Positions 1-29,606 of a stretch of DNA of 29,606 bases are shown here, piece after piece; positions within the stretch are counted from its first letter, which is position 1; the number at the start of each line of letters is the position of its first letter. The stretch comes from Clostridia bacterium (GTDB lineage Bacteria; Bacillota; Clostridia; Christensenellales; Aristaeellaceae): positions 1-29,606 of the forward strand of contig JAZRWA010000115.1 in NCBI GenBank assembly GCA_045599485.1, given 5' to 3'. A program made the position numbers and the translations under genes. A model generated the notes under the pieces. The model was not told the origin of the DNA. It saw only the letters and a program-made list of their open reading frames with translations, and made no database searches.

Positions 1-71
1 GTGCCGACCTCACCATTGAAAACACCCTGTCCCCCCGTGAGACGCTGCAGACGGTGCTGGAAAGGCTCTGA
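1..71 (+). CDS. 3' end of an unidentified protein gene (partial; ...ADLTIENTLSPRETLQTVLERL*)
   Basis: Frame 3 is open from the window edge to TGA at 69-71. A hairpin plus T-tract terminator follows. No family assignment is possible from 22 residues. Confidence 0.35.
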   Translation, partial: ADLTIENTLSPRETLQTVLERL

Positions 72-129
72 CGGCGGCGGTCTTTAAAAAGCCTTCAAAA
101 AAGCAGCTTTTTTCAATCAAACTTGCAAT

Positions 130-177
130 CCTGCAGGACCGACATTTTTTCGGTCCGAAGCAGGGTTGTTTTTTTAT
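130..177 (+). terminator. Rho-independent terminator after the upstream partial gene
   Basis: Nested stem cctgc/gcagg plus ggaccga/tcggtcc (130-165), followed by ttgttttttt. Confidence 0.6.
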
Positions 178-373
178 TGTATTTCAGAGCTGTTTTCCCC
201 TCCCAAAGGACAAAACAATCTCCCCATGCGCTGTCATTTTTCCTCGTTTTGCCCTTTTTGCCCTTACATTTTTCTCAATTTTGCCTGATATGGTAAAAAA
301 TTTATGTATACTTGCATCATACGCGCATTCAATTCAGAATATCGGTGTAAAATGAAATTTCCAAAATTATTTC

Positions 374-402
374 TTGCATTTTTGAAACATGTGTGCTATG
401 AT
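374..402 (+). promoter_or_regulatory. Sigma-70-type promoter for the ABC transporter operon
   Basis: TTGCAT (374-379), 17-nt spacer, TATGAT (397-402). Located about 125 nt upstream of the ATPase start. Confidence 0.45.
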
Positions 403-479
403 ACACACAATTCCGGACGACAAAGGCACCGCCTTTTCCAACGGAAGCGCTCATTATCTTCATCATGTCGGCAACGGCG

Positions 480-510
480 CCGGTGTGTTGTATACACCGG
501 TTCTTTCTAT
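480..510 (+). promoter_or_regulatory. Terminator-like hairpin in the ABC operon leader (possible attenuator)
   Basis: Stem ccggtgt/acaccgg (480-500) followed by ttctttctat, ending just upstream of the RBS AAGGAGG (516-522). No riboswitch or T-box core recognised. Confidence 0.3.
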
Positions 511-529
511 CATACAAGGAGGGGTCCCT

Positions 530-1252
530 TTGATCAGCGTAAACGGTTTGCACAAAAGCTTCGGTAATCTGGAAGTGCTCAAGGGCATTGACCTGGAGGT
601 CAAAAAAGGAGAGAAGCTCGTCATCATCGGGCCCAGCGGCTCGGGCAAAAGCACGCTCATCCGCTGCATGAACGGTCTGGAGGAAGCCACCGACGGCACC
701 GTCAGCGTGGATGGCCATGAGATGACCAAAAAGGACCGTGCCAGGTTGAACCGTGAGTACTCCTCCATGGTGTTCCAGCAGTTCAACCTGTACCCGCATC
801 TGTCGGTGCTGGGCAACCTGACGCTGGCCCCCACCAAGCTCAAAAAGATGCCCAAAAAAGAAGCTGAAGAGCTGGCCATGGAAAACCTGGAGCGTGTCGG
901 TCTGGCGCACAAGGCGCACGTGCTGCCCACCACCCTGTCGGGCGGACAGCAGCAGCGCATCGCCATCGCCCGTGCCCTGACCATGAAAAACCCCATCATC
1001 TACTTTGATGAACCCACCAGCGCGCTCGACCCCGAAATGGTCAAGGAAGTACTGGACATCATGGTGGAGCTCGGCAAGGAAGACATCACCATGGTCACCG
1101 TCACGCACGAGATGGGCTTTGCCCGCGAGGTCGCCGACCGCGTCGTCTTCTGCGATGGCGGCAAGATCATCGAGGAAGGCACCCCCGAACATTTCTTTAC
1201 CAGCCCCAAGGAAGAGCGCACGCAGGCCTTTTTGAGCAAGATCCTGCGCTGA
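530..1252 (+). CDS. Polar amino-acid ABC transporter ATP-binding protein (GlnQ/ArtP-like, 240 aa)
   Basis: Walker [10 protein letters not shown], signature [15 protein letters not shown], Walker [14 protein letters not shown]-loop [11 protein letters not shown] start at 530 lies 7 nt after AAGGAGG. The longer ATG-389 ORF has no RBS and a non-homologous N-terminus. Stop TGA. Confidence 0.93.
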
Positions 1253-1319
1253 TGACCGGTCGCACGCCGCAACAACGGCAGACGATATCCACCCAACAAA
1301 TACAAGGAGGAAATGATTT

Positions 1320-2099
1320 ATGAAAAAGCTGTTTTGTCTGGTTCTGTCCCTCGTGCTGGCGCTTTCCGCCGCTTCCGCTCTGGCCGACACCTTCCGCGTC
1401 GGCGTCAAACAGGATGTTTACGGCTTCGGCTATCTGGATGAAATGACCGGCACCTACACCGGCATGGAGATCGAGCTGGGTGCCCTGCTGGCCGATGCCC
1501 TGGGCTATGACGACATCGAATACACCACCGTCACCGCCGCCACCCGCGGTCAGATGCTGGACAATGACGAGCTGGATTGCGTCATTGCCACCTTCACCAT
1601 CAAGGAGGAGCGCAAGCTGAGCTGGGACTTCTCCACCCCCTACTACACCGACGCCGTCACCGTGCTGGTGGAGACCGACAGCGGCATCGTGGATCTGAGC
1701 GGTCTGGTCGGCAAAGTCGTCGGCGTGTCCTCCGGCTCCACCTCCGCCAAGGCGCTGGCGACCGCCATGGCCGAAGCGGGCCTGATCCCCACCTTTGACG
1801 CCTCCGCCTTCGACATCAGCACCTTCAGTGCCGGCGTCTCCTTCAAGCAGTTTGACGATTATCCCGCCATCTCCATCGCCCTATCCGCCCACGATATCGA
1901 TGCCTTCTGCGTGGACAAGTCCATCCTCGCCAACTACAAGACCGCGGACCGCAGCTTCATTGCCGACAGCTTCTCTCCCCAGGATTACGGCGTAGCCACC
2001 AAGAAGGGCTCCGACCTGTCCGCCAAGGTGGAAGAGCTCATCTGCACCTGGCTGGAGGACGGCACCATCGCCGGTCTGATCGAGGAATGGGGCCTGTAA
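1320..2099 (+). CDS. Amino-acid ABC transporter substrate-binding protein (family 3 SBP), secreted
   Basis: Signal peptide MKKLFCLVLSLVLALSAASALA, about 260 aa, SBP_bac_3-like sequence. RBS AAGGAGG lies 9 nt upstream. Operon position between ATPase and permeases. Confidence 0.88.
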   Translation: MKKLFCLVLSLVLALSAASALADTFRVGVKQDVYGFGYLDEMTGTYTGMEIELGALLADALGYDDIEYTTVTAATRGQMLDNDELDCVIATFTIKEERKLSWDFSTPYYTDAVTVLVETDSGIVDLSGLVGKVVGVSSGSTSAKALATAMAEAGLIPTFDASAFDISTFSAGVSFKQFDDYPAISIALSAHDIDAFCVDKSILANYKTADRSFIADSFSPQDYGVATKKGSDLSAKVEELICTWLEDGTIAGLIEEWGL

Positions 2100-2117
2100 T
2101 TCCCCTTGCACATCATC

Positions 2118-2150
2118 GGGGCGCGCGGCTCAACACCACGCGCCCCTTTC
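2118..2150 (+). terminator. Intra-operon hairpin after the binding-protein gene (partial terminator or stabiliser)
   Basis: Stem ggggcgcg/cgcgcccc (2118-2146) followed by tttc. Typical arrangement giving SBP excess over permeases. Confidence 0.4.
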
Positions 2151-2185
2151 CCCTGTAAATCACTTTTTCGGATGGTATTTTATTC

Positions 2186-2902
2186 ATGGGAACGATATTT
2201 GACGCGTCCTGCTGGGCCACGGTGTGGAAATACCGCGCCACCTTTGTCAACGGCTTTTTCAACACGCTGCTGACCGCCGCTGCCGGCCTGGTGCTGGCGC
2301 TGGTGCTGGGCGTGGTCATCGGCCTTTGCTCCACCGGCGAAAAAAAGTTTCTGCGCGTACTGGCCCGGATCTATGTGGAATTTTTCCAGAACACGCCGGT
2401 CATTTTGCAGGTGTGTTTTTTGTACTATGCTCTGGCGTATTCCGGCATCCGCGTTTCGGTGGTCACGGTCGGCATCATCTCGCTGGGCATCTATACGGGT
2501 GCTTACATGGCCGAGGTCATCCGCGCCGGCATCACCGCCATCCCCCCGGGGCAGTTTGACGCCGCGCTCTCACAGGGCTTTGACCGCCTGCAGACCATGC
2601 GCCTCATCATCCTGCCGCAGACCGTCAAGATCATCCTGCCCCCCATGGTCAACCAGATGGCCAACCTGATCAAAAACACCTCGTGCCTGTTCATCATCGG
2701 CGGTGCCGACCTGATCGCCACCACCTACAATTTTGTCACCGGCGAATCCACCGGCGGCGCCTACGGCCCGGCCTATCTGGTGGGCGGCCTGCTCTTCTTC
2801 TGCATGTGCTACCCGCTCTCCCTGATCGCCGGCAAATGGGAAGCTCATCTGAAGCAAAAGAGCATGCAGACCGCCGAACCCGCCAAGGAGGTGACTGCCT
2901 GA
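2186..2902 (+). CDS. Amino-acid ABC transporter permease (His/Glu/Gln/Arg/opine family)
   Basis: Multi-pass hydrophobic 238-aa protein. EAA-loop region GQFDAALSQGFDRLQTMRLIILPQ. Stop TGA overlaps the next start (TGATG). Confidence 0.88.
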   Translation: MGTIFDASCWATVWKYRATFVNGFFNTLLTAAAGLVLALVLGVVIGLCSTGEKKFLRVLARIYVEFFQNTPVILQVCFLYYALAYSGIRVSVVTVGIISLGIYTGAYMAEVIRAGITAIPPGQFDAALSQGFDRLQTMRLIILPQTVKIILPPMVNQMANLIKNTSCLFIIGGADLIATTYNFVTGESTGGAYGPAYLVGGLLFFCMCYPLSLIAGKWEAHLKQKSMQTAEPAKEVTA

Positions 2903-3866: not shown

Positions 3867-4532
3867 ATGAATCCCATTACCTATGAACAACTGCAGGCCA
3901 ACACGGCCGTTCACACCTACATCGCCATGGAGGATGAGGGGCTGTCCGCCCTCGGCTATACCGAGCACAGCTTTGCCCACGTCACACAGGTGGCGGAACG
4001 CGCCGGCTACATTCTCGAAACCCTCGGCTATCCCGAGCGCACGGTGGAGCTGGTCAAGATCGCCAGCTACCTGCACGATATCGGCAACATCGTCAACCGC
4101 GTCAACCACAGCCAGAGCGGCGCCATCATGGCCTTTTCGCTTCTGTCCGGCATGAACATGCCGCCCGAGGAGATCACCCCCATCATCATGGCCATCGGCA
4201 ACCACGATGAAGGCACCGGTCAGCCGGTCAGCGCCCTTGCCGCCGCCCTCATTCTGGCGGACAAATCCGATATGCGCCGCAGCCGCGTCCGCAACACCGA
4301 TAAGACCACCTTTGACATTCACGACCGTGTCAATTATTCCGTTCTCAAATCCGAGCTCAAGATCAACGAGGCGCACACGCTCATCAAGCTGAAGCTGAAG
4401 GTCGATACACAGTACGGCTCAGTCATGGATTATTTCAGCATTTTTATGGAGCGCATGATGCTCTGCCGCAAAGCCGCCCAGACACTGGGACTGGACTTCA
4501 AATTGATGATGAACGAACAGCAGATGATCTGA
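3867..4532 (+). CDS. HD/HDIG-domain metal-dependent phosphohydrolase (221 aa)
   Basis: Motifs HSFAHV, YLHDIGN (HDIG) and GNHDE. Confidence 0.75.
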   Translation: MNPITYEQLQANTAVHTYIAMEDEGLSALGYTEHSFAHVTQVAERAGYILETLGYPERTVELVKIASYLHDIGNIVNRVNHSQSGAIMAFSLLSGMNMPPEEITPIIMAIGNHDEGTGQPVSALAAALILADKSDMRRSRVRNTDKTTFDIHDRVNYSVLKSELKINEAHTLIKLKLKVDTQYGSVMDYFSIFMERMMLCRKAAQTLGLDFKLMMNEQQMI

Positions 4533-4571: not shown

Positions 4572-5530
4572 TATTTGTGTAAAACACGCAGCCTGCGCAG
4601 GCGGCTGAGCAGCCGCAGTACCTTGGGGCGTGCCACCCGGTAAATGCGATCATAACCACGGAAGGGAAGGATCAGTCCCGCCCGGCGGTTCTGCCGTTTC
4701 AGGCGCTCCCTGCAGGCGTCGATCAGCGTTTTCTCCGCCCCGATCGCTTCCATGGCACAGATACAGCCGATGCACACCACCGTATATTTTTGCCGAAATT
4801 TCCGCTGCACCCGCGCACCGGCATGCAGCCTGAGCCATTCGCCCTGCTCCTCCAGCGCATCCAGCGCGTCCAGCCGCCGCGCGCTCCAGGCGGAGTTGGT
4901 GATGCTGTCCGGCCGTACATAATACGCATAGATCGGCCGGTCGATCAGTGCCACCCTTTCATAGCCAAACAGCAGCTTCCAGAGGACAAACTCATCCTCA
5001 TACAACCGCCCCTCGGGAAAGCGCACCGTCGCAAAATCGCATGTGCGGAAGAGCTTGCCCCACGCGACCGTAAACACGGTCAAATGCCTGCAATACAGCT
5101 CCTCCGGCGTCACAGAACGGGCCTCAGACGGGGCAAAAGCTTCCATGTATATTTCCTCATCCGTCGTCACAAAACGCCCCACAGCGGCACCACAGCCTTC
5201 CTGTGCCATGGCCTGCACCAGCAGCTCCAGATAGCGGGAATGCACCCAGTCATCACTGTCTACAAAGGTGATGAATTCACAGCCCCGCCGCAGCGCTTCC
5301 TCAATGCCGGTGTTTCTGGCCGCCGACAGTCCCCTGTTGGGCTGATGCATCGCCTGCACCCTCGGGTCAGCCGCGGCAGCGGCATCGCACAGGAAGGGGC
5401 TGCTGTCCGTACTTCCATCATCCACCAGCAGCAGCACAAAATCCCGGAAGGATTGGCGCAAAATGCTGTCCACGCACCGCTTCAGATACTTTTCCGTGTT
5501 GTATACCGGCACGATCACCGCGACCGACAT
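4571..5530 (-). CDS. Family 2 glycosyltransferase (319 aa)
   Basis: N-terminal GT-A signature VIVPVYNTEKYLKRCVDSILRQSF...LLLVDDGSTDSS and a DSDD motif. RBS GGGAGG lies 9 nt upstream. Confidence 0.85.
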   Translation of the reverse strand: MSVAVIVPVYNTEKYLKRCVDSILRQSFRDFVLLLVDDGSTDSSPFLCDAAAAADPRVQAMHQPNRGLSAARNTGIEEALRRGCEFITFVDSDDWVHSRYLELLVQAMAQEGCGAAVGRFVTTDEEIYMEAFAPSEARSVTPEELYCRHLTVFTVAWGKLFRTCDFATVRFPEGRLYEDEFVLWKLLFGYERVALIDRPIYAYYVRPDSITNSAWSARRLDALDALEEQGEWLRLHAGARVQRKFRQKYTVVCIGCICAMEAIGAEKTLIDACRERLKRQNRRAGLILPFRGYDRIYRVARPKVLRLLSRLRRLRVLHK

Positions 5531-10947: not shown

Positions 10948-13900
10948 TTACAGGATCACGGGATTCTTTTCCGCTTCGGGAGCGGGAGCTTCCTCGGCAG
11001 GAGCGTAAGCGTTGTTGATGGCTTCCGCCACGGCATTGCTGGTGCAGGTCGCACCGGCGATCATTTCCACTTCGGTCACAGGCAGGCTCTTGCCCACATA
11101 GCTCTGGGCAAAGGCTTCGTCCAGCGCCTTGGCGCCATAGCCTTCGGTCTCGCAGAAATCGGCATCGCCGATCTTGAGGGCGGCAATGGCGTCACCGGAA
11201 ACGGTCACTTCCACGACCACGGGACCCATGAAGCCGCGGGCGCAGCCGGTCAGCACAACGGGTTCCTCGGTGGTGGCAGGAACGACTTCTTCGGTCACAG
11301 CAGGAGCCGCTTCCTCGGTCGCTTCGGGAGCAGTCACAGCGGCTTCTTCCTTGGCTTCCACAGCGGGAATGATCACGGGATTCTTTTCAGCCTCGGGAGC
11401 GGCGGCTTCCTCGGCAGGAGCATAAGCGTTGTTGATGGCGGCGGCAACGGCCTTGCTGGTGCAGGTGGCACCGGCAATGATCTCCACATCGGCGTCCGTC
11501 AGGGGCAGCGCCTTGCCCACATAGCTCTGGGCATAGGCCTCATCCAGCGCTTTGGCGCCGTAGCCTTCGGTCTCGCAGAAGGCATCGCTGCCGATCTTCA
11601 GAGCGGTAATGGCATCGTTGGCAACGGTCACTTCAACGGCGACCTCACCCATGAAGCCACGGGCGCAGCCGTTCAGCACGACAGCTTCCTCGGTGGTGGC
11701 GGGAACGACTTCTTCGGTCACAGCAGGGGCCGCTTCCTCGGTCGCTTCGGGAGCAGTCACAGCGGTTTCTTCCTTGGCTTCCACAGCGGGGATGATGACG
11801 GGATTCTTTTCGGCCTCGGGAGCAGCGGCTTCCTCGGCGGGAGCATAAGCATTGTTGATGGCGGCGGCGACAGCCTTGCTGGTGCAGGTGGCACCGGCGA
11901 TGATCTCCACATCGGCATCCGTCAGAGGCAGGCTCTTACCCACATAGCTCTGGGCATAGGCTTCATCCAGCGCCTTGGCGCCGTAGCCTTCGGTCTCCTT
12001 GAATTCGGCGTTGCCGATCTTCAGAGCGGTAATGGCATCGTTGGCAACAGTCACTTCAACGGCGACCTCACCCATGAAGCCGCGGGCGCAGCCGTTCAGC
12101 ACAGCGGCTTCGGCGGCAGCAGGGGCATCAGCCACGGGAGCTTCGGGAGCGGTCACAGGGGCTTCTTCCTTGGCTTCCACAGCGGGGATGATCACGGGAT
12201 TCTTTTCAGCCTCGGGAGCGGCGGCTTCCTCGGCAGGAGCATAAGCATTGTTGATGGCAGCGGCGACGGCCTTGCTGGTGCAGGTGGCACCGGCAATGAT
12301 CTCCACATCGGCATCCGTCAGGGGCAGGCTCTTGCCCACATAGCTCTGGGCATAGGCTTCATCCAGCGCCTTGGCGCCATAGCCTTCGGTCTCGCAGAAG
12401 GCATCGTTGCCGATCTTGAGGGCGGCAATGGCATCGTTGGCGACGGTCACTTCAACGGCGACTTCACCCATGAAGCCGCGGGCGGAGCCGTTCAGCACGG
12501 CGGCGGCGGGAGCGGCTTCCTTCTCGCCCACGGCGGGAATGATGACGGGGTTCTTTTCAGCCTCGGGAGCGGCGGCTTCCTCGGCGGGAGCATAAGCGTT
12601 GTTGATGGCGGCGGCGACAGCCTTGCTGGTGCAGGTGGCACCGGCAATGATCTCCACATCCGCATCGGTCAGGGGCAGGGTCTTGCCGATATAGCGCTGG
12701 GCATAAGCTTCATCCAGCACCTTGGCACCGCAGCCTTCGATCTCCTTGAATTCGTCGTTGCCGATCTTCAGGGCGGTGATGGCATTATCTTCGATGGTCA
12801 CTTCGACGGCGACCTCGCCCATGAAGCCGCGGGCAGCGCCCTTGACCGTGCCGGAGGCAGCGGCAGGAGCGGTAGTGGCTTCGGGAGCTTCGGGAGCGGC
12901 AGCGCTCATGGAGGCAAACGCCTCGTTGATGGCTTCCACAACGGCCTTGCTGGTGAAGGTGGCGCCGGAGATCATATCGACATCGCCCTCATTCAGAGGC
13001 AGAGCCTTGCCGATGAACTGACGCTGATAACCATCCGCCAGAGCCTTCTGGCCGAAGCCTTCGGTCTCCCTGAAGTTTTCATCACCGATCTTGATGGCCT
13101 CGATGGTGTTGTCGGCGGTCACGGCGATTTCAACGGCCACGGGGCCGGCGAAGCCCTGGGCGGAAGCGGCCACACGGGTACCCGCGGCGCTTTCGATATC
13201 GGGCAGTTCTTCGTTCATCACGGCGAAGGCGGCATTGATGGCTTCCACAACCGCCTTGCTGGTGAAGGTGGCGCCGGTAATGGCTTCCACATCGCCATCG
13301 TTCAGGGGCAGAGCCTTGCCGATGAACTGACGCTGGTAATCATCCTCAAGGGCCTTCAGGCCGAAGCCGGCGGTCTCATTGAAGTTGGCGTCACCGATCT
13401 TGATGGCTTCGATGGTGTTGTCCTCGGTCACGGCGATCTCCACCTTGACGGGGCCGGCGAAGCCCTGAGCGGAGGCAGAGGTACGCTCGCCCTTGGCATT
13501 CTCGATATCGGGCAGCGCAGCGGCGGCGGCACTGGCCTGCGCGGCATACGCTTCGGGGTCGGTCACATACAGCAGGATCTGGTTGACGGCCTTGTTGATG
13601 GCGGTACTGGTGATGGTGGCGCCGGACAGGGCATCCACTTCCTCGCCCAGAGCCGGCTGACCGGTCAGGCCGATGTACTGCGCCAGGTAGTCCGCACCGA
13701 TGCGGCCGCCGTAGTTGGGCGTTTCGGAGGAAACGTCCGCAACGATCTGGCCGATGAAGAATTCATCATTCACCAGCAGCTCCACGCGCACATCGCCGCC
13801 GAAGCCCGCCAGGCTGATGGCGTACCAGCCGTCGCCCAGCTCTTCCACATCGACCTGCGCGGTCTCGATGATGAAGCCGGCAACCTCACTCAGCGTGCCC

Positions 13901-14400
13901 ATGGCGTCATTGACACCGCGGATAACGGCCTTGGAAGTGATGGTGGCGGCCGTCAGGGCGTCGATCTCACCGCCGTCCTTGGACAGGGAGACAGGCGCGG
14001 TCTTGCCGGCAAACTGATCCTGGAAGGAAGCTTCCTTGGCACGAGCGCCCAGGCCGGCAGTTTCGGAGAAGTTGGCACCGCCCACGCTGATACCGGTGAT
14101 GGTACCATCGGGCTCCACACCCACGGTGATCTCGATCTCGCCGCCGAAGCCGTTGGTGGGCACGGTAGCGGTATAGCCGATCACCTCGCCGGCAGCATTC
14201 TTGGCGACATAAACATTGTTTTCCTCATCGTACTCAAAGCTCGTGGCCTCAGGCAGCAGCGCCTTGCGGGCCTCTTCCGCCTTGGCGGCGGTGTTGGCAT
14301 CGATCTGGGGCTTGGTCATGTTGTAGGTAGCAGCCAGCAGACCGGCGGCGATCACACAGATCAGGGTCAGCAGCAGCCAGGCGGGAATACGCTTCTTCAT
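10948..14400 (-). CDS. Membrane-anchored extracytosolic protein with nine tandem FMN_bind (RnfG/NqrC-type) flavinylation domains (1150 aa)
   Basis: RnfG-like N-terminus with one TM helix (MKKRIPAWLLLTLICVIAAGLLAATYNMTKP). Nine [ST/A][GA]AT-x-TS motifs, with the predicted flavinyl-Thr at residues 153, 262, 378, 481, 589, 706, 839, 979 and 1118. Pro/Ala/Glu-rich linkers. GGAG RBS. Immediately downstream of apbE in the same orientation. Confidence 0.9.
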   Translation of the reverse strand: MKKRIPAWLLLTLICVIAAGLLAATYNMTKPQIDANTAAKAEEARKALLPEATSFEYDEENNVYVAKNAAGEVIGYTATVPTNGFGGEIEITVGVEPDGTITGISVGGANFSETAGLGARAKEASFQDQFAGKTAPVSLSKDGGEIDALTAATITSKAVIRGVNDAMGTLSEVAGFIIETAQVDVEELGDGWYAISLAGFGGDVRVELLVNDEFFIGQIVADVSSETPNYGGRIGADYLAQYIGLTGQPALGEEVDALSGATITSTAINKAVNQILLYVTDPEAYAAQASAAAAALPDIENAKGERTSASAQGFAGPVKVEIAVTEDNTIEAIKIGDANFNETAGFGLKALEDDYQRQFIGKALPLNDGDVEAITGATFTSKAVVEAINAAFAVMNEELPDIESAAGTRVAASAQGFAGPVAVEIAVTADNTIEAIKIGDENFRETEGFGQKALADGYQRQFIGKALPLNEGDVDMISGATFTSKAVVEAINEAFASMSAAAPEAPEATTAPAAASGTVKGAARGFMGEVAVEVTIEDNAITALKIGNDEFKEIEGCGAKVLDEAYAQRYIGKTLPLTDADVEIIAGATCTSKAVAAAINNAYAPAEEAAAPEAEKNPVIIPAVGEKEAAPAAAVLNGSARGFMGEVAVEVTVANDAIAALKIGNDAFCETEGYGAKALDEAYAQSYVGKSLPLTDADVEIIAGATCTSKAVAAAINNAYAPAEEAAAPEAEKNPVIIPAVEAKEEAPVTAPEAPVADAPAAAEAAVLNGCARGFMGEVAVEVTVANDAITALKIGNAEFKETEGYGAKALDEAYAQSYVGKSLPLTDADVEIIAGATCTSKAVAAAINNAYAPAEEAAAPEAEKNPVIIPAVEAKEETAVTAPEATEEAAPAVTEEVVPATTEEAVVLNGCARGFMGEVAVEVTVANDAITALKIGSDAFCETEGYGAKALDEAYAQSYVGKALPLTDADVEIIAGATCTSKAVAAAINNAYAPAEEAAAPEAEKNPVIIPAVEAKEEAAVTAPEATEEAAPAVTEEVVPATTEEPVVLTGCARGFMGPVVVEVTVSGDAIAALKIGDADFCETEGYGAKALDEAFAQSYVGKSLPVTEVEMIAGATCTSNAVAEAINNAYAPAEEAPAPEAEKNPVIL
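10954..12840 (-). repeat. In-frame tandem repeat array: five near-identical FMN-domain-plus-linker units (417, 423, 396, 351 nt, plus a partial fifth)
   Basis: The marker gat(c/g)acggg(a/g)ttcttttc... recurs at 10954, 11371, 11794, 12190 and 12541. All unit lengths are multiples of 3. Encoded domains 7 and 8 differ at about 5 of about 110 residues. Confidence 0.9.
12910..13512 (-). repeat. Older in-frame tandem duplication: two 309-nt units encoding FMN domains 3 and 4
   Basis: gatggcttccacaac(g/c)gccttgctggtgaaggtggcgccgg recurs at 12928 and 13237 (103-aa period). The proteins PDIENAKGERTSASAQGFAGPV... and PDIESAAGTRVAASAQGFAGPV... align throughout. Confidence 0.8.
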
Positions 14401-14449: not shown

Positions 14450-15487
14450 TCATTGGGTAAAGGGCAGATACGTTTTGAAGCCGGTCGTCCAGAAGACGTT
14501 GCCGTCCTCCTCCACCCACATGGCTTCGGCGTCGTATTTTTCAAGCAGGGGCAGCGCGTCCTCCGCGCTCATCAGGTACAGCGCGGTGGAAAGGGCATCG
14601 CCGATGCCGCTGTCCGCGCAGATGATGGTCACGGCCTTGTACCGGCGGGCCGGCATCAGGGTATCGGGATCGATAATGTGGTGGTAGTTGACACCATCCA
14701 CGGTGTAAAAGCGCTGATAGTCACCGCTGGTCACGACGGAACCCTCCGTCATGCTCAGGGTCGCCAGGTAGCTGTTGCTGTAGGGATCAAAGGGATCGGT
14801 CACCCCCACGGTCCATTTGGCGCCGTCCGGCTTGGCCCCATGCACCAGCACGTTGCCGCCCACACTGATCAGATACCCCTCCGGAAAATCCCTGCAGGAT
14901 AGCTCTGCGGCATAGCCCTTGGCCAGGGCACCCACATCCAGCCTTGCTTCGGGATCGGTCAGCCGCACGGTGCACGCCTCGGGATCGATCTGAAGCAGAT
15001 CCATGCCCGTATGCCGTGCAGCCTCAGCCAGCACCTCCGCGTCCGGCAGATACGCCTTGTCCGGATGCGCGATGCCGTATTCACGTGCCTCATGCCACAC
15101 ATTCAGCACCGCGCCCAGCGTGACGTCGACGCGTCCCGCGGTCAGCACCGCCACCTCGCGGGCAAAGAGCAGAAAATCGATCATCTCTTTGCTGACGCTG
15201 ACCGGCTCACCGCCCGCGGCATCGTTGACGGTCTTGAGGTTGTTGACCCCCTCATAATCGTTGTAGATGTCAAACAGGGCGTTATAGGTCCGCATCGATT
15301 GCGTAAACCGCTCCACCTCTTCATCAAAGGCGGCACGTGATTCGGCATAGCCCATCACATAGGTCACGGTGTCAAACAGATCGAGCAGCGTGGTCTGAAA
15401 GCGCACGGGTGCTCCGCCGGCTCCGGCGGGGACAGCTCCCATCAGCAGAATCAGCGCCGTCATCAGGCACAATATCTTCCGCTTCAT
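14450..15487 (-). CDS. apbE: ApbE-family FAD:protein FMN transferase, secreted or membrane-anchored (345 aa)
   Basis: N-terminal signal/anchor MKRKILCLMTALILLMGAVPAGA. ApbE motifs ISVGGNVLVHG, TSGDYQRFY, HHIIDPDT. ATG 15487 follows AAGGAA. The track ORF extends to an upstream GTG with no support. Confidence 0.88.
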   Translation of the reverse strand: MKRKILCLMTALILLMGAVPAGAGGAPVRFQTTLLDLFDTVTYVMGYAESRAAFDEEVERFTQSMRTYNALFDIYNDYEGVNNLKTVNDAAGGEPVSVSKEMIDFLLFAREVAVLTAGRVDVTLGAVLNVWHEAREYGIAHPDKAYLPDAEVLAEAARHTGMDLLQIDPEACTVRLTDPEARLDVGALAKGYAAELSCRDFPEGYLISVGGNVLVHGAKPDGAKWTVGVTDPFDPYSNSYLATLSMTEGSVVTSGDYQRFYTVDGVNYHHIIDPDTLMPARRYKAVTIICADSGIGDALSTALYLMSAEDALPLLEKYDAEAMWVEEDGNVFWTTGFKTYLPFTQ

Positions 15488-15819: not shown

Positions 15820-16728
15820 ATGAGCGTACTGGACAGACTGATCCGCAGCGACAAGCTCAGCGAGCTGCTGGAGGCGGCCAAAAACGGCGCTGCCTCGGCC
15901 TATGAGGTCAGCGAGGGCGCGCGCGCAGCGCTGGCCGCGGCCGTAACGCTGGCGTCCGGCCGGCAGGTGATCGCCGTCTGCCCTTCCGAAAGGGAAGGCG
16001 CCGCGCTGGCCGAGGACGCCCGTCAGCTGGGGGTCAATGCCGCCGCGCTGCCCGCCCGTGAAAGGCAGTTTGCCCGTTCGGTCGCCAGCCGGGATGCCAG
16101 CTGGCAGCGTGTCAGCATGCTGGGCGCCCTGCGTCGCGGCGAAACACGCCTTTTGTTTATCTCCGCCGACATGCTTTTGTGGAAGACCACGCCCCCGCAG
16201 AAGTGGGAAATGATGAGTGCCCCCCTCGAGACCGACGCCGAGATGGACCCCAAGGCCCTCCTCCGGCATCTGATCTCCGCCGGCTACGAGCGTGTGGAAA
16301 TGGTGGAAGGCCGCGGCCAGTGCGCCCTGCGCGGCGCCATTCTGGACGTCTTTCCGCCCGACAGCCTCAACGCCCTGCGCATTGAGTTTTTTGACAATAC
16401 CATCGATTCCATCCGTTCCTTTGACTGCATCACCCAGCGTTCGGTGGAGCATCTGCATTCCGTGTGCATCAGCCCCGCCGCCGAATACGTATTGACCCCG
16501 CCCGAAAAGGCCGAAGCGGGCGCACGCATGCACTCGCTGCTGGAAAGCGCGCAGGAGCGCTTCCGCGGCACGGCAGATGGCCTTTCCGCCCTTCTGGCCG
16601 ATGCCGAAACGCTTCAAAACGGCGGTGCCCTGGCCCAGATGGACCTGTGGGCCGGCGTGCTGATGCATCAGACCGCGCCCTTGACCGCCTGGCCGCAGCA
16701 GCCCATCGTGCTGATCTTTTCGCCGTAG
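15820..16728 (+). CDS. mfd: Transcription-repair coupling factor Mfd, N-terminal segment, ending at an in-frame TAG (16726-16728)
   Basis: ATG 15820 after GGAGGGG. UvrB-homology-type N-terminal region. Same reading frame as the 16798..19284 ORF. Confidence 0.85.
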   Translation: MSVLDRLIRSDKLSELLEAAKNGAASAYEVSEGARAALAAAVTLASGRQVIAVCPSEREGAALAEDARQLGVNAAALPARERQFARSVASRDASWQRVSMLGALRRGETRLLFISADMLLWKTTPPQKWEMMSAPLETDAEMDPKALLRHLISAGYERVEMVEGRGQCALRGAILDVFPPDSLNALRIEFFDNTIDSIRSFDCITQRSVEHLHSVCISPAAEYVLTPPEKAEAGARMHSLLESAQERFRGTADGLSALLADAETLQNGGALAQMDLWAGVLMHQTAPLTAWPQQPIVLIFSP

Positions 16729-16797
16729 CACTGTCTGGAGCGCCTGCGGGATGCCCGCAATGGCTTTGAAAACGAGCTGGCGCAGGCCATCGAACGC

Positions 16798-19284
16798 ATG
16801 GAGGCCGTACCCGAGCAGCAGGATGCCCTTTTGACGGAGGCGGAAGCCCTGCAAATGGTCAACTGTCACACCGTCATCACCGTGCAGGATCTGATGCGCC
16901 CCGCCGAGGGCTTCCGTCAGGGGCACTTTGTGCAATTGCCCACGCTGGACGCCCCTTCCTACCGCACCAATGTACGCGACCTGGCCGAGGACCTCAAGAC
17001 CTGGAGCCGTGAAAAGGCCGATGTCTTCCTCTACACAGGCGGCGAGGCGCGCACCGGGCGACTGAAGGAAGCGCTGCAGGGGGTGGAATGGCATGAGGAT
17101 CCCACCGTGCGCTTTGACCCCGTCACGCTGCACCGCGGCTTCCTCCTCGGCTTCTGCGGACTGTATGTCATCAGCGATGCCGACATCTACGGCACAGTGC
17201 ACAAAAAGAGTGCCGTCAAAAGCAGCCTTTCCCAGCGCATCGGGGCCTTTACCGACCTCAAAGAGGGCGATTTTGTCGTTCACGAGGCGCATGGCGTGGG
17301 CATCTATCAGGGTGTACAGCGTGTGCAGAGCGAGGGCGCATGGCGTGATTATCTGGTCATCCAGTACCGCGGCACCGACCGGCTGTATGTGCCCACCGAT
17401 CAGTTTGACCGTGTGCAGAAATACATCGGCTCGCAGGAAACGCCGCCGCCCCTCAACTCCCTGTCCGGCGGCGAGTGGGAAAAGCAAAAGAGCCGTGTCA
17501 AGGCAGGGCTCAAAAAGCTGGCCTTCAATCTGGTCAAGCTCTATGCCGAGCGTGAAAAAACGCCCGGTCATGCCTTCTCGCCCGACAACACCTGGACGGG
17601 ACAGTTTTCCGATGCCTTCCCTTACGAATTGACCGATGATCAGGCGCGTGCCGTTGAGGATATCCGCCGTGACATGGAGGCCCCTCGCAACATGGACCGC
17701 CTGCTGTGCGGTGATGTGGGCTACGGCAAGACCGAGGTGGCCATGCGTGCCGCCTTCAAGGCGGTCTGCGACAGCAAGCAGGTGGCGCTGCTGGCGCCCA
17801 CCACCATTCTGGCACAGCAGCATTATTACACCTGTGTCAAACGCTTCAAGGATTTTCCCGTCACCATTGAGGTGCTGAGCCGCTTCCGCAGCCCCAAGGC
17901 GCAAAAGGAAGCGCTCATGAAGGCGGCCTCCGGCAAAGCCGATATCGTCATCGGCACGCACCGCCTGCTCAGCAAGGACGTGACCTTCAAGGATCTCGGC
18001 CTGCTCATCGTTGATGAGGAGCAGCGCTTTGGTGTGCAGCACAAGGAGCAGATCAAAAACTACAAAAAAACGGTGGATGTGCTCACCATGTCCGCCACAC
18101 CCATCCCCCGCACCCTGCACATGAGCATGGTGGGCGTGCGCGACATGAGCGTGCTGGAAACGCCGCCCGAGGACCGCGTCCCCGTACAGACCTACGTCAT
18201 CGACTACAACGAAAGCATCATCCGCGATGCCATCCTGCGTGAGATGGGCCGCGGCGGTCAGGTCTACTTCCTATACAACAGGGTCAGCGATATCGATCGT
18301 TTTGCGGGGCGCCTGCGCCAGCTGGTGCCGCAGGCACGCATCGTCATCGGGCACGGTCAGATGGCGGAACGCGATCTTGAGGATGTGATGCTGGATTTCT
18401 ACAGCGGCAAATACGATGTGCTGCTGTGCTCCACCATCATTGAAAACGGTCTGGATGTGCCCAACGCCAACACCATGATCGTCTATGATGCCGACCGTTT
18501 CGGTCTGAGCCAGCTGTATCAGCTGCGCGGGCGTGTGGGACGCTCCAACCGTGTGGCGTATGCCTATTTCACCGTGCGCCCCGGTGCCTCCATCAGCGAG
18601 ACCGCCGAAAAACGCCTGTCCGCCATCCGGGAGTTCACGCAGTTCGGTGCCGGCTTCCGCATCGCCATGCGCGATCTTGAGATCCGCGGCGCGGGCGACA
18701 TCTTCGGAGCCGAGCAGAGCGGTCACATCGCGGTCGTCGGCTATGACATGTACTGCCGTCTGATCGAGGAAGCCGTGCGTGAGGAGCAGGGCATTTCCAC
18801 CGAGCGTGAGCAGCTGGAGCCCCGCATCGACCTGCGCATCAACGCCTTCCTGCCCGAAAAATACATCAAAAGCGGCAGCCAGCGTGTTGAGGTCTACAAG
18901 CGCATTGCCGCCCTGCGCACCGAGGAGGAGCAGAGCGACATCGTGGACGAGCTGATCGACCGTTACGGCGATGTGCCCGATTCCGTCATGCGGCTGCTGG
19001 ACACCGCCCTTTTGCGCGCGCTGTGCGTGTATTTCGGCGTGCAGCTGGTGCAGCGGCAAAACAATCAGCTGTTCTTCCGCTTTGATATGCGCTACATTCC
19101 CGATGTGGCACAGATGAACCTCGCCATGGGGCCCAAGTGCCGCCTGCGCTTTTCACCCTCGCGCATTCCGGGGCTGATCCTGCCCCTCACCGCCAAGGAC
19201 AGCGATGAGGACGGTCTCGCCCTCGCCTGCCGCGAGCTGGGGCTCATCCGCGCCGCGATGGAAAAAGCCGACGAGGGGAAGTAA
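16798..19284 (+). CDS. mfd: Transcription-repair coupling factor Mfd, C-terminal segment (frame is open from 16729; first ATG at 16798)
   Basis: RNAP-interaction (CarD-like) motif [19 protein letters not shown]. Helicase motifs [35 protein letters not shown]. With the N-terminal segment it totals 1154 codons, a normal Mfd length. Confidence 0.92.
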
Positions 19285-23335: not shown

Positions 23336-25519
23336 TCAGACCGGCAGCTCGGTCAGCCGCAGCGCCAGCGCGGTGTAGCGGCGGGCAATGTGGTTGTTAT
23401 TCACCATCGCGGCCACACAGTCCTCCCGCCCGGCCAGCACCACCAGCTCCCGCGCGCGGGTCAGGGCGGTATAGAACAGGTTGCGGGTCAAAAGCATCGG
23501 CGGACCGCCGGTGCAGGGCATTACCACGCAGGTAAACTCGCTGCCCTGGCTCTTGTGCACCGACAGGCAATAAGCCAATTCCAGCTCCTCGGTCAGCGTG
23601 GCGTCATAATCCGCCCGCCGTCCGTCGTCAAACAGCACGGTCAGCTCCTTTTCCTCCGGATCGACGCTCTCGATCACACCCATATCGCCGTTGAACACGC
23701 CCTTGCCCTCGCCGGCGCCGTACCATTCCAGCTGATAGTTGTTGTGGATATGCATCACCTTGTCGCCTTCGCGAAAGAGCCTTTCCCCCAGCTGCAGCTC
23801 CCTTTTTTGGCGGGAGGGCGGGTTCAGCGCCTGCTGCAGAAGGACATTGAGCTGATTGACGCCGCACGGTCCCTTTCGCTGGGGTGACAAGACCTGAATG
23901 ACCCTCGCGGGCTCCCCGGTCTTGAGGTAGGCAGGCAGGCGCTTCAGGCACAACTCGACCACACGCCGTGCCGTTTCCTCGGGATATGCCACGCGCTCCA
24001 TAAAAAAGTTGCCGTCCCGACGGTTGACCTGCGGCATCTCACCGCGGTTGATAGCATGGGCGTTGCGCACGATCAGGCTGCTTTCGGCCTGACGGAAGAT
24101 CTCTGTCAGGCGCACCGAGGGGATCACACCGCTTTTGAGCATATCTCCCAGCACATTGCCCGCGCCCACCGAGGGCAGCTGGTCGGCGTCTCCCACCATG
24201 ATCAGCTTGGCGCCCTGCGGCAGCGCGCGCAAAAAAGCGCGCATCAGATACACATCCACCATGGACATCTCGTCCACAATGAGGCAGCTGCACTCCAGCG
24301 GCTCCTCTTCATCGTGCCCGAACTGACCGTCCTCGCCGCCGTAGCCCAGCAGGCGGTGCAGCGTCTGCGCCTCCTTGCCGGTGGCCTCGCTCATACGCTT
24401 GGCGGCACGCCCCGTGGGCGCCGCCAGCAGCACGCCGTCACTGTCCAGCAGGGACAAAATGCAATTGATAATGGTCGTTTTGCCCGTGCCCGGGCCGCCC
24501 GTGATGACCAGCAGACCGCTTTCCACCGCGGTGACGATGGCCTTTTTCTGCGTATCGGAAAACTGCATGCGGTGCTGCCGCTCATAATCGGCAATACGGC
24601 GGTCGGCATCCTTTACCCGGGTGCGCACGCCCCCCGCCCGCAGCTCCAGCAGACGGCGGGCAATGTCCGTTTCGGCATGCCACAGCTGCGGCAAAAAGAC
24701 CGCCGCCGTGCCGTCGATCAGATAGCTGCGCAGCTTGCGGCTCAGCAGCAGCTGCGTCAGGTGCTGCTCCAGCCGGGTGCCCTCCACCCGCAGCAGCTCG
24801 CCGGCCGTTTTCAGCAGCTCCGCCTGCGGCAGATAGGTATGCCCCGCCGAGACCGAGGCATCCTGCAGCGCGTAGATCAGCCCCGCGCTGAGCCGCTCCG
24901 GGCTGTCGGGCTCCATGCCCATGGCCAGGGCGATGCGGTCCGCCGTCAGAAAGCCGATGCCCGCCACATCCTCCACCAGCCGGTAGGGATTGGCACGCAC
25001 AATGTCCGCCGCCTGCGCGCCATAGGTACGGGCAATGCGCATGGCCATGGAAGCCGATACGCCGTAGCCCTGCAAAAAGACCATCACCTGCCGTGTGGCA
25101 TACTGCTCCTGAAAGGAGGCGGCGATGCGGGCGGCGCGCTTGGCGCCGATGCCCGTCACCTCAATGAGCCGCTCGGGGTGCTCGCTCATCACATCCAGCG
25201 TTTTCAGCCCAAACTCCTGCACGATCAGGCGCGCGGTGGAAGGTCCCACGCCGCTGATGAGCCCCGAGCCCAGGTATTTTTCAATGCCCGTCAGCGTGGA
25301 GGGCGCTTCCACCTCGCACGACGCGGCCTTGAACTGCCTGCCGTACTGCGGATGCACCATCCACTCTCCCTGAAAGACTGCCTTTTCGCCGTCCGCCAGC
25401 TCAGGCAGCACACCGATGACCGTCACCTCGCTGCGGTCGGCACGCACCGTCAGCACGGTGTAGCCGTTATCGGGATTCCGGAAGGTGACAGCGCGCACCG
25501 TTCCCTTCAGTTCTTCCAT
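23336..25519 (-). CDS. recD2: RecD2-type SF1B ATP-dependent DNA helicase (727 aa)
   Basis: ITGGPGTGKTT, APTGRAAKRM, LIVDEMSMVD, VGDADQLPSVGAGN, SVHKSQGSEF. ATG 25519 follows AAGGGAGG and overlaps a TGA (TGATG) that closes the read-through frame of the upstream gene. Confidence 0.9.
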   Translation of the reverse strand: MEELKGTVRAVTFRNPDNGYTVLTVRADRSEVTVIGVLPELADGEKAVFQGEWMVHPQYGRQFKAASCEVEAPSTLTGIEKYLGSGLISGVGPSTARLIVQEFGLKTLDVMSEHPERLIEVTGIGAKRAARIAASFQEQYATRQVMVFLQGYGVSASMAMRIARTYGAQAADIVRANPYRLVEDVAGIGFLTADRIALAMGMEPDSPERLSAGLIYALQDASVSAGHTYLPQAELLKTAGELLRVEGTRLEQHLTQLLLSRKLRSYLIDGTAAVFLPQLWHAETDIARRLLELRAGGVRTRVKDADRRIADYERQHRMQFSDTQKKAIVTAVESGLLVITGGPGTGKTTIINCILSLLDSDGVLLAAPTGRAAKRMSEATGKEAQTLHRLLGYGGEDGQFGHDEEEPLECSCLIVDEMSMVDVYLMRAFLRALPQGAKLIMVGDADQLPSVGAGNVLGDMLKSGVIPSVRLTEIFRQAESSLIVRNAHAINRGEMPQVNRRDGNFFMERVAYPEETARRVVELCLKRLPAYLKTGEPARVIQVLSPQRKGPCGVNQLNVLLQQALNPPSRQKRELQLGERLFREGDKVMHIHNNYQLEWYGAGEGKGVFNGDMGVIESVDPEEKELTVLFDDGRRADYDATLTEELELAYCLSVHKSQGSEFTCVVMPCTGGPPMLLTRNLFYTALTRARELVVLAGREDCVAAMVNNNHIARRYTALALRLTELPV

Positions 25520-25635
25520 CAGCGCCCGCCTCCCTTCTCCCACAGTCCGTAGCGGCTGCTGTCCTTGAGCGCCGTCAGCAAATACTCTCTCAATTGCGGA
25601 TACCGCCCGGACAGCTCGTCCAGCAGCTCCTTCAT
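25519..25635 (-). other. Open in-frame continuation (38 codons) of the ttcA-like gene beyond its TAG: MKELLDELSGRYPQLREYLLTALKDSSRYGLWEKGGGR*
   Basis: Hand translation of the minus strand. The codon after TAG (25638-25636) is in the same frame. No stop occurs until TGA 25521-25519, which overlaps the recD2 ATG. Confidence 0.6.
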
Positions 25636-26241
25636 CTATTGCCGGGTGGTATGCCCGTCCGCCGGGCAGGGATTCTTGATGACCGGCAGGCCGAACTTGC
25701 GGGCAATGTGGATCACGTCCTTTTCGGGCGTATAGATCATGGGGCGGATGACGTCGATCCTGGGGTCATCCATGTGCGTCACCGGCGCAAAGGTGTACAG
25801 CCTGGCCTCGTGCAGCAGGCTCATGAGCAGCGTTTCCTCCGCGTCTTCCCGGTGATGCCCCAGCGCCAGCTTGGTGCAGTGAAGCTCCGCCGCCATGCGC
25901 AGCAGCGCCCCACGGCGAATGCGCGCGCACAGGGCGCAGGGGTGCGTTTCTCTGCGCACCTCAAACAGCTGATAAAACAGGTCGCTTTCCTGCACGTGAT
26001 ATTCCACGCCCAACTCCTTACACAACTGTTTGACAGGTGTTGTATCAAATGGCTCGCCGGGCTTCAGGGTAATGCCCACCACCTCAAAGGGCTTTGCGGC
26101 AAAACGCGAATAGACCGCCAGCGCGCGCAGCAGCACCAGGCTGTCCTTGCCGCCCGATACGCCCACCGCCACACGGTCCCCCCGATGGATCATGTCAAAA
26201 TCCGTATCCGCCCTGCGGATATCTCCAAGCAGCCGCTTCAT
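25636..26241 (-). CDS. TtcA-like PP-loop ATP pyrophosphatase (tRNA thiolation family), as delimited by TAG under the standard code (201 aa; 240 aa if TAG is decoded)
   Basis: PP-loop VGVSGGKDS, Cys ligands PCALCARIRRG and NPCPADG. ATG 26241 lies 5 nt after GGAGGGGG. It is the only ORF in the window ending in TAG. Confidence 0.82.
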   Translation of the reverse strand: MKRLLGDIRRADTDFDMIHRGDRVAVGVSGGKDSLVLLRALAVYSRFAAKPFEVVGITLKPGEPFDTTPVKQLCKELGVEYHVQESDLFYQLFEVRRETHPCALCARIRRGALLRMAAELHCTKLALGHHREDAEETLLMSLLHEARLYTFAPVTHMDDPRIDVIRPMIYTPEKDVIHIARKFGLPVIKNPCPADGHTTRQ

Positions 26242-26348: not shown

Positions 26349-26377
26349 TTGTGAAAAGCTCCCGGGATGTGTATAAT
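26349..26377 (+). promoter_or_regulatory. Candidate promoter for the phosphoglucomutase gene
   Basis: TTGTGA (26349-26354), 17 nt, TATAAT (26372-26377). Confidence 0.5.
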
Positions 26378-26414
26378 AAAATCACGCAAATTCTTTTTGA
26401 AAGGATCTGAGAAC

Positions 26415-28103: not shown

Positions 28104-28119
28104 TCTTTACCGGTTCACA

Positions 28120-28168
28120 GGGGTTTCGCCGTCCAAACAGGAGGGCGAGACCCCTTTTTCTTTTTTTT
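28120..28168 (+). terminator. Rho-independent terminator after the phosphoglucomutase gene
   Basis: Stem ggggtttcgcc/ggcgagacccc followed by tttttctttttttt. Confidence 0.8.
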
Positions 28169-28174
28169 CCTATC

Positions 28175-28183
28175 TGTTATAAT
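28175..28183 (+). promoter_or_regulatory. Extended -10 promoter element for the CDF transporter gene
   Basis: TGTTATAAT (TGn + TATAAT). No convincing -35. Confidence 0.4.
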
Positions 28184-28238
28184 GAATCGATAATAAACCG
28201 ATCCCTTTCGTCGGCGTTCCCAAAGGAGTATTTTTCCC

Positions 28239-29375
28239 ATGCGTTTTCTCTGCAAGCTTTTCCGTCAGGATCCCGATTCCCGTGAGGGCGTCATCTCCGC
28301 CACTTCGGGTCTTGGCATCGCGGTCAATGTCGTGCTCGCCCTGGTCAAGGTCATCATCGGCATGATGACGTCCTCCATCGCCATCATTTCCGAAGGCGCC
28401 AATGTCGCCTCCGATTCGCTCTCCTCCCTGCTCACGCTCATCGGCACCAAGCTGGCGGCCCGTCACCCCGATGCCAAGCATCCCTTCGGCTACGGCCGCA
28501 TCGAGTACCTTGCCAGCCTGATCATTTCCGTCATGATCCTTGTCACCGGTCTTGAAATGTTCATCAGCTCCGTCAAGCTGATCTTCCATCCCGAAGAAAT
28601 GAACATCTCCGCCCTCATCATCATGCTGGTCGCGCTGACGGCGGTGGTCAAGTTCTGTCTGGGCGTATACACCATGAAGGTCGGCAAGTCGGTCTCCTCC
28701 GGCGCCCTTGTCGGCATGGGTCTGGACAGCCGCAACGACGCCTTTGCCTCTCTGATCACCATTGTTGCCTCTCTGGTCTATCTGATCTTCCACATCTCGC
28801 TGGATGCCTACGCCGGCATCATCATCTCCGCCATGATCCTCAAATCCGGCATCGGTCTGCTCAGGGATACCGTATCCGACCTGCTGGGCCGCCCCGGCGA
28901 GCACGAGCTGGCCGTCAAATTGTACCACGAGATCCGCAGCACCGAGGGCATCCTGTCCGCCGCGGATATGATGCTGCACAACTACGGCCCCGATGCCTGG
29001 TCCGGCTCTGTCAATGTGGAGATCGACAGCACCAAAACAGTGGGCGATATCTACAGCTTCCTGCACGCGCTGCAGCTGCGCATCATGCACGAATACCACG
29101 TCACCATGGTGTTCGGCGTGTACGCGGTGGACCGCACCTCGCCCGAAAGCAAGCTGCTCGGGCGGCAGATCGGCACCTTTGTCAAGGAACACGCCCCCAT
29201 CAAGAGCTTCCATGCCGTGTATCTGGACGAGGCCAACAAGAAGCTGTACTTTGATATCATTGTGGATTATTCCCTGCACGACTGGCAGCCCCTGCGTGAG
29301 GAGCTGACAGCGTATATGCACGGTCTCTACCCCGATTATGACCTGCAGCTGACCATCGAGACCGAATTTGTGTAA
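28239..29375 (+). CDS. Cation diffusion facilitator (CDF) family metal efflux transporter (378 aa)
   Basis: Six predicted TM segments. CDF signature region SDSLSSLLTLIGTKLAARHPDAKHPFGYGRIEY. C-terminal cytoplasmic domain. RBS AAGGAG. Confidence 0.85.
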   Translation: MRFLCKLFRQDPDSREGVISATSGLGIAVNVVLALVKVIIGMMTSSIAIISEGANVASDSLSSLLTLIGTKLAARHPDAKHPFGYGRIEYLASLIISVMILVTGLEMFISSVKLIFHPEEMNISALIIMLVALTAVVKFCLGVYTMKVGKSVSSGALVGMGLDSRNDAFASLITIVASLVYLIFHISLDAYAGIIISAMILKSGIGLLRDTVSDLLGRPGEHELAVKLYHEIRSTEGILSAADMMLHNYGPDAWSGSVNVEIDSTKTVGDIYSFLHALQLRIMHEYHVTMVFGVYAVDRTSPESKLLGRQIGTFVKEHAPIKSFHAVYLDEANKKLYFDIIVDYSLHDWQPLREELTAYMHGLYPDYDLQLTIETEFV

Positions 29376-29422
29376 ACCAAAAGCACTCTTGCACAGCAAA
29401 CATCGCAAGAGTGCTTTTGGTT
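29375..29422 (+). terminator. Long perfect hairpin (18-bp stem) at the CDF gene stop
   Basis: aaccaaaagcactcttgc / gcaagagtgcttttggtt with a 12-nt loop. Only a weak T-tract follows (ttattg). Confidence 0.55.
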
Positions 29423-29435
29423 ATTGATCCATCTT

Positions 29436-29501
29436 GCCCTTTCTCAGAGGGGGTCATAGGGGGGAATCCTGCTTTCCGGCATCGGAAAGCGGGATTCCCC
29501 C
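29436..29501 (+). repeat. Conserved structured intergenic element, copy C
   Basis: gccctttctcagagggggtcatag + gggggaatcc-tg-ctttccg-gcat-cggaaag-cg-ggattccccc. Confidence 0.7.
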
Positions 29502-29528
29502 TGTCGTTTCTGTCGTTTTCCCGTACGC

Positions 29529-29606
29529 TCACTCCACCGTCATCAATGTCACGGCGTCCACGCCCTCCACGGCGCGCAGGCGGCCGATGGCCTGCTCCAT
29601 GGTGCA
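29529..29606 (-). CDS. 3' end of an unidentified minus-strand gene (partial; ...CTMEQAIGRLRAVEGVDAVTLMTVE*)
   Basis: Minus frame is open from the window edge to TGA (29531-29529). Coding-like codon usage. No family call. Confidence 0.35.
   Translation of the reverse strand, partial: CTMEQAIGRLRAVEGVDAVTLMTVE

Follow-up and report, generated by a model that had tools for sequence, protein, structure and literature searches.

In-frame UAG codons that exchange with glutamate codons point to a probable sense reassignment of UAG in an uncultured Clostridia genus of the herbivore gut

The DNA considered here is a stretch of 29,606 nucleotides (29.6 kb, about 60% G+C, referred to below as the window) of bacterial chromosomal DNA from an uncultured Clostridia genus of the herbivore gut, in which two conserved genes, the transcription-repair coupling factor gene mfd and a ttcA-like gene for a PP-loop ATPase, each contain one in-frame TAG codon. 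When these genes and their neighbors are compared with other genomes of the genus, the pattern of sequence change makes it highly likely that the genus translates UAG as a sense codon, most probably as glutamate. We also lean toward the view, with rather less assurance, that this would be the first natural bacterial code in which UAG means glutamate, mediated by a tRNA-Glu-like tRNA with the anticodon CUA (tRNA-CUA), with release factor 1 (RF1) lost or disabled and the whole process caught early. A preliminary description of the window had placed in-frame TAGs in mfd and the ttcA-like gene, at what prove to be the exact positions, with both frames continuing into conserved sequence, and had suggested that TAG is read at least partly as sense. 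That suggestion gains support from the conservation of the mfd TAG, from the purifying selection acting downstream of it, from the further TAGs of a sister species and from the glutamate counterparts described below.

The gene set comprised the 22 complete genes of the window, called by codon-position G+C and Pfam matches. Relatives were reached through 90%-identity protein clusters of the window proteins, and are about 91-92% identical to the window at the nucleotide level. They consist of a metagenome-assembled genome (MAG) from horse faeces (GCA_024404275.1; loci L001, L088, and L101), an ENA sample (ERZ27247129; loci L087 and L104), and several Logan and ENA contigs (loci L090 and L102-L109), which brings the genus sequence reached to about 100 kb in all. 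The horse MAG and the ENA genome are about 98% identical, and by sequence identity the set is made up of two species, the window's own and a sister species that was sampled many times. A phosphoglucomutase (PGM) scan of GTDB genomes retrieved one close relative (L001) and 47 distant loci without synteny; these 47 PGM-containing loci, whose PGM is 56-74% identical, formed the distant comparison set. Scans of JGI metagenomes and viral contigs with a chimeric query returned only distant relatives or the conserved ATP-binding cassette (ABC) transporter operon.

One in-frame TAG, codon 303 of mfd, is old. The UvrB_inter domain is found by Pfam before this codon, and the CarD_RID, DEAD, Helicase_C, and TRCF domains are found after it in the same frame. 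The same codon is TAG in six independent assemblies (the window, horse-MAG locus L088, and four further Logan/ENA loci, L106-L109), and the 90% cluster contains 12 different N-terminal Mfd fragments, every one of which stops at the same residue (...FSP). The window gene and its horse-MAG ortholog are 97% identical in protein and 91% identical in nucleotide sequence. Across the 851 codons that follow the TAG, the two differ by 196 synonymous and 22 non-synonymous changes, with no indels, a synonymous divergence (dS) of 0.42 and a ratio of non-synonymous to synonymous divergence (dN/dS) of 0.027. A gene that had lost its function before the two species split would be expected to show a different pattern. 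In distant homologs the residue at position 303 is Asp or Glu, within a P[D/E] motif, and the outgroups have E, E, and D.

Two more TAGs interrupt mfd in the sister species, at codons 15 and 734. Codon 734 encodes the second Glu of helicase motif II (DEEQRFGV), where distant homologs have E, and was itself read in L088 only. In five further sister-species members of the cluster, mfd is split into pieces of 407 and 398/416 aa, which is consistent with a stop at codon 734; these members sit on four other contigs (ENA contigs of 4204, 1456, and 14427 bp and a Logan contig of 1819 bp). A split at this codon cannot yield two working proteins. The public annotation of GCA_024404275.1 accordingly presents Mfd as three proteins (MCQ2454178-MCQ2454180; 261, 407, and 398 aa), two labelled "hypothetical" and one "DEAD/DEAH box helicase". 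Short Mfd homologs on long contigs of ENA MAGs (among them P0003, P0006, P0008, and P0015) were considered as signs of a clade-wide truncation and were set aside, the alignment showing garbled, frameshifted tails; these are indel errors of assembly or sequencing in unrelated MAGs, of a kind that can mimic recoding in screens based on length.

The second TAG of the window, codon 202 of the ttcA-like gene, is polymorphic within the genus. Three protein variants have TAG at this codon and six have Glu; the window has TAG vs. GAA in the sister species (L001), and the 201-aa (TAG) and 240-aa (Glu, ...TTRQEMK...) forms fall in one 90% cluster. The 38 codons past the TAG align to the C-termini of homologs of 240-250 aa (up to residue 236), and the read-through frame ends in a TGA that overlaps the ATG of recD2 (TGATG), as would be expected for the true end of the gene. 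Elsewhere the residue is E in five of five outgroups and mostly E in distant homologs. The protein scores under the NCBIfam cut-off for TtcA.

Further TAGs are found in other genes of the sister species (Table 1). The recD2 gene also appears as a 513-aa fragment in one Logan assembly. The database entry for the horse MAG gives the glycosyltransferase as two proteins and has no call for glnQ; like the three-part Mfd, these are mis-annotations that follow from taking TAG as a stop. The glnQ site lies in the motif IDLEVKKGE, at a position that is variable in outgroups. A side observation on this glnQ-like ORF (open reading frame; 386-700) is that its first ATG adds an N-terminal extension of about 45 residues that is unconserved in the sister species and outgroups, and its true start is probably a non-ATG codon further in. 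For arsR, solved structures of the ArsR family extend some 20 residues beyond the TAG at codon 99, a position occupied by Glu in Lmo1102. This arsR is part of a three-gene insertion (L087 1215-3031) between mfd and DUF3783 that is absent from the window and encodes an arsR-family regulator, an ArsP-type permease, and a thioredoxin-like protein; the insertion has a lower G+C at third codon positions and may have been horizontally acquired, and its arsR carries an in-frame TAG all the same. In addition, upstream of the left end of the window, the dnaE call of ERZ27247129 (L104 1-1167) covers a C-terminal piece of 444 aa, against more than 934 aa for that of the horse MAG (L101 1-1169); this hints at a candidate in-frame TAG in this essential gene, about 55 codons before the locus read.

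Table 1. In-frame TAG sites of the genus, followed by the genes of the window
Feature	Position in window	Strand	Details
mfd codon 303	16726-16728	+	TAG in window and sister species
mfd codon 15	15862..15864	+	GAG in window; TAG in sister species (L088, L106-L109)
mfd codon 734	18019..18021	+	GAG in window; TAG in sister species (L088)
ttcA-like codon 202	25636-25638	-	TAG in window
recD2 codon 514	23978..23980	-	GAG in window; TAG in ENA locus L087
Glycosyltransferase (GT) codon 227	4850..4852	-	GAG in window; TAG in sister species (L101, L104)
glnQ codon 70	596..598	+	GAG in window; TAG in sister species (L101, L104)
Histidine kinase (HK) codon 69			TAG in sister species
arsR codon 99			TAG in sister species
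mfd, transcription-repair coupling factor	15820..19284	+	1154 codons through one TAG; terminator TAA
ttcA-like PP-loop ATPase	25519..26241	-	240 codons through one TAG; Pfam ATP_bind_3
recD2		-
glnQ-type amino-acid ABC transporter operon			Pfam
HD phosphohydrolase	3867-4532		Pfam
Glycosyltransferase			Pfam
yhbY, tpiA, pgk, serA, serC			Pfam
RnfG/FMN_bind repeat protein	10948-14400	-	1150 aa; nine repeats
apbE (flavin transferase ApbE)	14450-15487	-
DUF3783, NAGPA, and DUF1292 proteins			Pfam
C69 peptidase			Pfam
Phosphoglucomutase and cation-diffusion facilitator			Pfam

Altogether, about ten in-frame TAGs were counted over the roughly 100 kb covered for the genus, which come from two species and at least eight assemblies. 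At all six sites for which a genus member offers a sense counterpart, that counterpart is a Glu codon (five GAG and one GAA); the chance of this is about 3e-4, as GAG accounts for 25% of the codons that a single substitution would turn into TAG. CAG and AAG codons are abundant in the window (241 and 324, respectively), yet none of the six TAG sites exchanges with either. The surroundings of the TAG sites were compared for a common motif and none was found, and this absence of a common context argues that decoding is general rather than programmed at individual sites, as it would be in an event resembling that of SECIS (selenocysteine insertion sequence) or PYLIS (pyrrolysine insertion sequence) elements. 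The TAG-bearing genes are free of frameshifts and of in-frame TAA and TGA codons. The sense TAGs number 2, 6, and 5 per roughly 9-10 thousand codons in the respective genome samples, or 0.3-0.9% of Glu codons, and none was seen in pgk, tpiA, serA, serC, or pgm, the glycolytic and other highly expressed genes being TAG-free so far. This rarity, together with the absence from highly expressed genes, suggests either a recent reassignment or inefficient decoding.

Taken by itself, the window proves little. Its only internal stops, across the 22 genes, are the TAGs of mfd and the ttcA-like gene, and two nonsense mutations would be plausible there; it is the sister genomes that make the signal decisive. 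The codons of the window that lie one step from a stop number 1364 for TAG, 729 for TAA, and 231 for TGA, so that a random nonsense mutation would produce TAG in about 59% of cases. As for gene ends, the preliminary description was right that none is TAG; its tally of 24 ends (15 TGA, 9 TAA) becomes 23 (14 TGA, 9 TAA) on recounting, a trivial difference. The argument that it drew from the missing TAG terminators carries little weight, as TAG terminates only 28 of 393 coding-like ORFs (7.1%) in related Clostridia MAG loci passed through the same ORF filter. In the 34 gene families of the genus the terminators are likewise TAA or TGA only, with five switches between these two among genomes and none to TAG. 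The 47 distant PGM loci showed no convincing in-frame TAG (one case, L016, is ambiguous), and TAG is used there as a terminator; on this limited sample, and from these sequences, the trait looks confined to the present genus.

The proposed mechanism would run as follows. A tRNA with the anticodon CUA that is charged with Glu, for instance a tRNA-Glu derivative, would read UAG, and RF1 would be lost, or weak enough for read-through to dominate. Changes from GAG to TAG (G>T) would thereby become near-synonymous and could drift in and out. The distribution of TAGs would then go back to a single gain that preceded the divergence of the two species, to several more within the sister species, and to at least one in the species of the window.

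A number of points weigh against translation of UAG as glutamate. At the 7.1% baseline, zero TAG ends out of 23 has a probability of about 0.18, which is weak on its own, and zero TAG terminators in the 34 genus families has one of about 0.08, non-significant when taken alone. The tRNA-CUA and the loss or weakening of RF1 are proposals, the roughly 100 kb reached containing neither a tRNA gene (ARAGORN detected none in the window or in five of the larger genus loci, L001 and L087-L090) nor prfA. Model bacteria can do without mfd and without ttcA, and the TAG-bearing genes found are, more generally, non-essential or weakly expressed there, so read-through may be partial. Finally, the amino acid is deduced from the substitution pattern, and Asp or a tolerated Gln would be possible; RecG-type helicases have DEQH at the motif II position. 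Asp or Gln at TAG would, however, leave the exclusive exchange with Glu codons unexplained.

Among the alternative explanations, the one that fares best, although we consider it improbable, is that no dedicated tRNA exists for UAG: with RF1 lost or impaired, near-cognate tRNAs would insert mixed residues, and TAG would build up at positions that tolerate any residue or a lower yield of protein. Such a system would be in keeping with TAG being rare and so far restricted to non-essential genes, and with no tRNA-CUA having been seen in the genus sequence reached. When near-cognate tRNAs read UAG, the residue inserted is typically Gln, Tyr, Lys, or Trp, which does not explain why TAG should take the place of Glu codons alone at six of six sites, the motif II Glu included. 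Moreover, three TAGs in one gene of 1154 codons, as in the L088 mfd, would multiply the losses.

It is also quite improbable that a dedicated system exists but inserts a different residue, i.e., pyrrolysine (Pyl) through pylTSBCD, or Gln or Asp through another suppressor tRNA. Pyl is the sole natural UAG-encoded residue known in bacteria, the change of tRNA-Gln from CUG to CUA is the easiest route to a suppressor, and distant homologs have Asp at mfd position 303 more often than Glu. Nevertheless, Gln, Lys, or Pyl at UAG predicts exchange with CAG or AAG, which occurs at none of the six sites, and no PYLIS-like common context is present. The TAG sites are located in mfd, ttcA, recD2, GT, glnQ, HK, and arsR and exchange with GAG or GAA only, which is not what a Pyl-specific code would give; the Pyl-like system raised in the preliminary description is therefore unlikely, TAG exchanging with Glu codons and not with those for Lys. 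An Asp code would need the conservative replacement of E by D to be accepted at every site, including in DEEQ. Recoding of the phage type (code 15) finds no support either, given that the content is chromosomal and housekeeping, that viral contigs gave no match, and that the aligned residue is Glu.

The preliminary description had regarded nonsense mutations or base-call errors as the poorer alternative, and the recurrence of the TAGs in sister genomes, the selection after the TAG, and the Glu counterparts all but exclude it. We consider it very unlikely that the TAGs are ordinary nonsense mutations in decaying pseudogenes of a lineage shedding non-essential functions, even if all TAG-bearing genes are plausibly dispensable, the codon composition favors TAG among one-step nonsense mutations, and TAG terminators are rare in relatives anyway. 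The mfd-303 TAG is older than the species split, yet the codons behind it have remained under the strong constraint given above; about ten TAGs have arisen without any frameshift or TAA/TGA lesion; the sense counterparts are Glu throughout; and ttcA-202 alternates between TAG and Glu among close variants. The chance that sequencing or assembly artefacts, such as G>T oxidative damage fixed in low-coverage MAG consensus sequences, are responsible is close to negligible: although every inferred change replaces the initial G of a GAG codon by T and some contigs have low coverage, the same TAGs come from independent studies and assemblers (two NCBI MAGs, ENA MEGAHIT contigs of several samples, and Logan assemblies of four runs), and errors from GAA to TAA, which would be expected about equally often, were not seen.

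All known bacterial stop reassignments concern UGA (PMC8629427; PMC13462651, August 2026), as the preliminary description had also maintained, and no bacterial UAG-to-Glu code was reported in the literature searched up to August 2026. The bacterial UGA codes (code 4, Trp, in Mycoplasmatales and several endosymbionts; code 25, Gly, in Gracilibacteria/Absconditabacteria) resemble the present case in being clade-wide changes from stop to sense, with in-frame stops in conserved genes and absence of the codon from gene ends. They involve the loss of RF2 and a tRNA-UCA, whereas the codon here is UAG and RF1 and a tRNA-CUA would be involved; furthermore, the genome here is GC-rich and gives no sign of reduction. 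A preprint by Kivenson et al. (bioRxiv 10.1101/2024.09.30.615893) reportedly describes an archaeal Pyl code in which all TAG codons mean pyrrolysine, the only genome-wide prokaryotic UAG reassignment reported. In that code, too, UAG is sense across the genome and hard to detect, as the coding density barely shifts; it is, however, archaeal, depends on pylTSBCD, and inserts Pyl, while TAG here swaps with Glu codons. Phages recode UAG to Gln, crAss-like and Lak phages doing so with suppressor tRNAs (PMC10879173, PMC10607447). Like the code proposed here, this makes UAG a sense codon inside a bacterial cell by way of a suppressor tRNA, but the genomes concerned are those of phages, the residue is Gln, and the recoding is often limited to late genes, in contrast to chromosomal housekeeping DNA and Glu.

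Parallels in meaning are found in eukaryotes. Peritrich ciliates have a UAR = Glu code. So does Blastocrithidia nonstop (PMC12153298). In these codes UAG is assigned to glutamate through a tRNA-Glu with an altered anticodon, and in the present genus UAG would likewise be assigned to Glu; the eukaryotic codes are nuclear, involve changes in eRF1, and reassign UAA too, whereas UAA ends 9 of the 23 window genes read. Laboratory E. coli strains with amber suppressors or a deletion of RF1 (PMC4434889; C321.deltaA) also decode UAG by a suppressor tRNA and have few or no UAG terminators, but these are engineered, while here a natural lineage appears to gather sense TAGs in its native genes.

Several features of the window are unrelated to the TAG codons. 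No phage gene was found in it, and no Rfam family in the window or in five of the larger genus loci. The RnfG/FMN_bind repeat protein is secreted or membrane-anchored, adjoins ApbE, and looks, from its sequence, like a multi-flavinylated extracellular electron-transfer protein. The DNA of its gene contains near-identical tandem units of 423, 351, and 309 bp (82-87% identity), and at 90% identity its product forms a cluster of one in the protein collection. The HD-domain protein has counterparts at least 90% identical to it in the pho regulon (phoU, pstSCAB) on many ENA/Logan contigs, and the index lists 74 collection blocks for it; it is either an unusually conserved small protein or a horizontally transferred one. 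Ten of these contigs (loci L091-L100) come from a different organism and served for the terminator baseline only. At the right end of the window (29376-29606), a convergent gene terminates with TGA at 29529-29531. Three assemblies obtained independently (that of the window, that of the horse MAG, and the ENA one) all break off within a few hundred bases past the cation-efflux gene, and this suggests a repeat, such as an rRNA/tRNA array or a mobile element, just past the window.

A sense UAG would have practical consequences for the study of this lineage. Gene callers split about 10-20% of its genes, and current translation-table predictors consider tables 4, 11, and 25 only; such split calls would be expected to bias counts of pseudogenes, estimates of completeness, and protein databases. 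The lineage is also a possible source of a natural orthogonal pair of tRNA and glutamyl-tRNA synthetase (GluRS) or of an RF1-free chassis, and a changed meaning of UAG would bear on code incompatibility between phages and their hosts. The process may be at an early stage, with rare and polymorphic TAGs arising stepwise from GAG, and would then allow a direct test of the codon-capture and ambiguous-intermediate models of code change. So far, UAG as a sense codon has been a matter of Pyl, phages, archaea (the Pyl code), and eukaryotes only. If the reassignment to glutamate is true, the existence of such a code in a gut bacterium that is free-living and GC-rich would show that bacteria can also dispense with RF1-dependent termination in the course of evolution.

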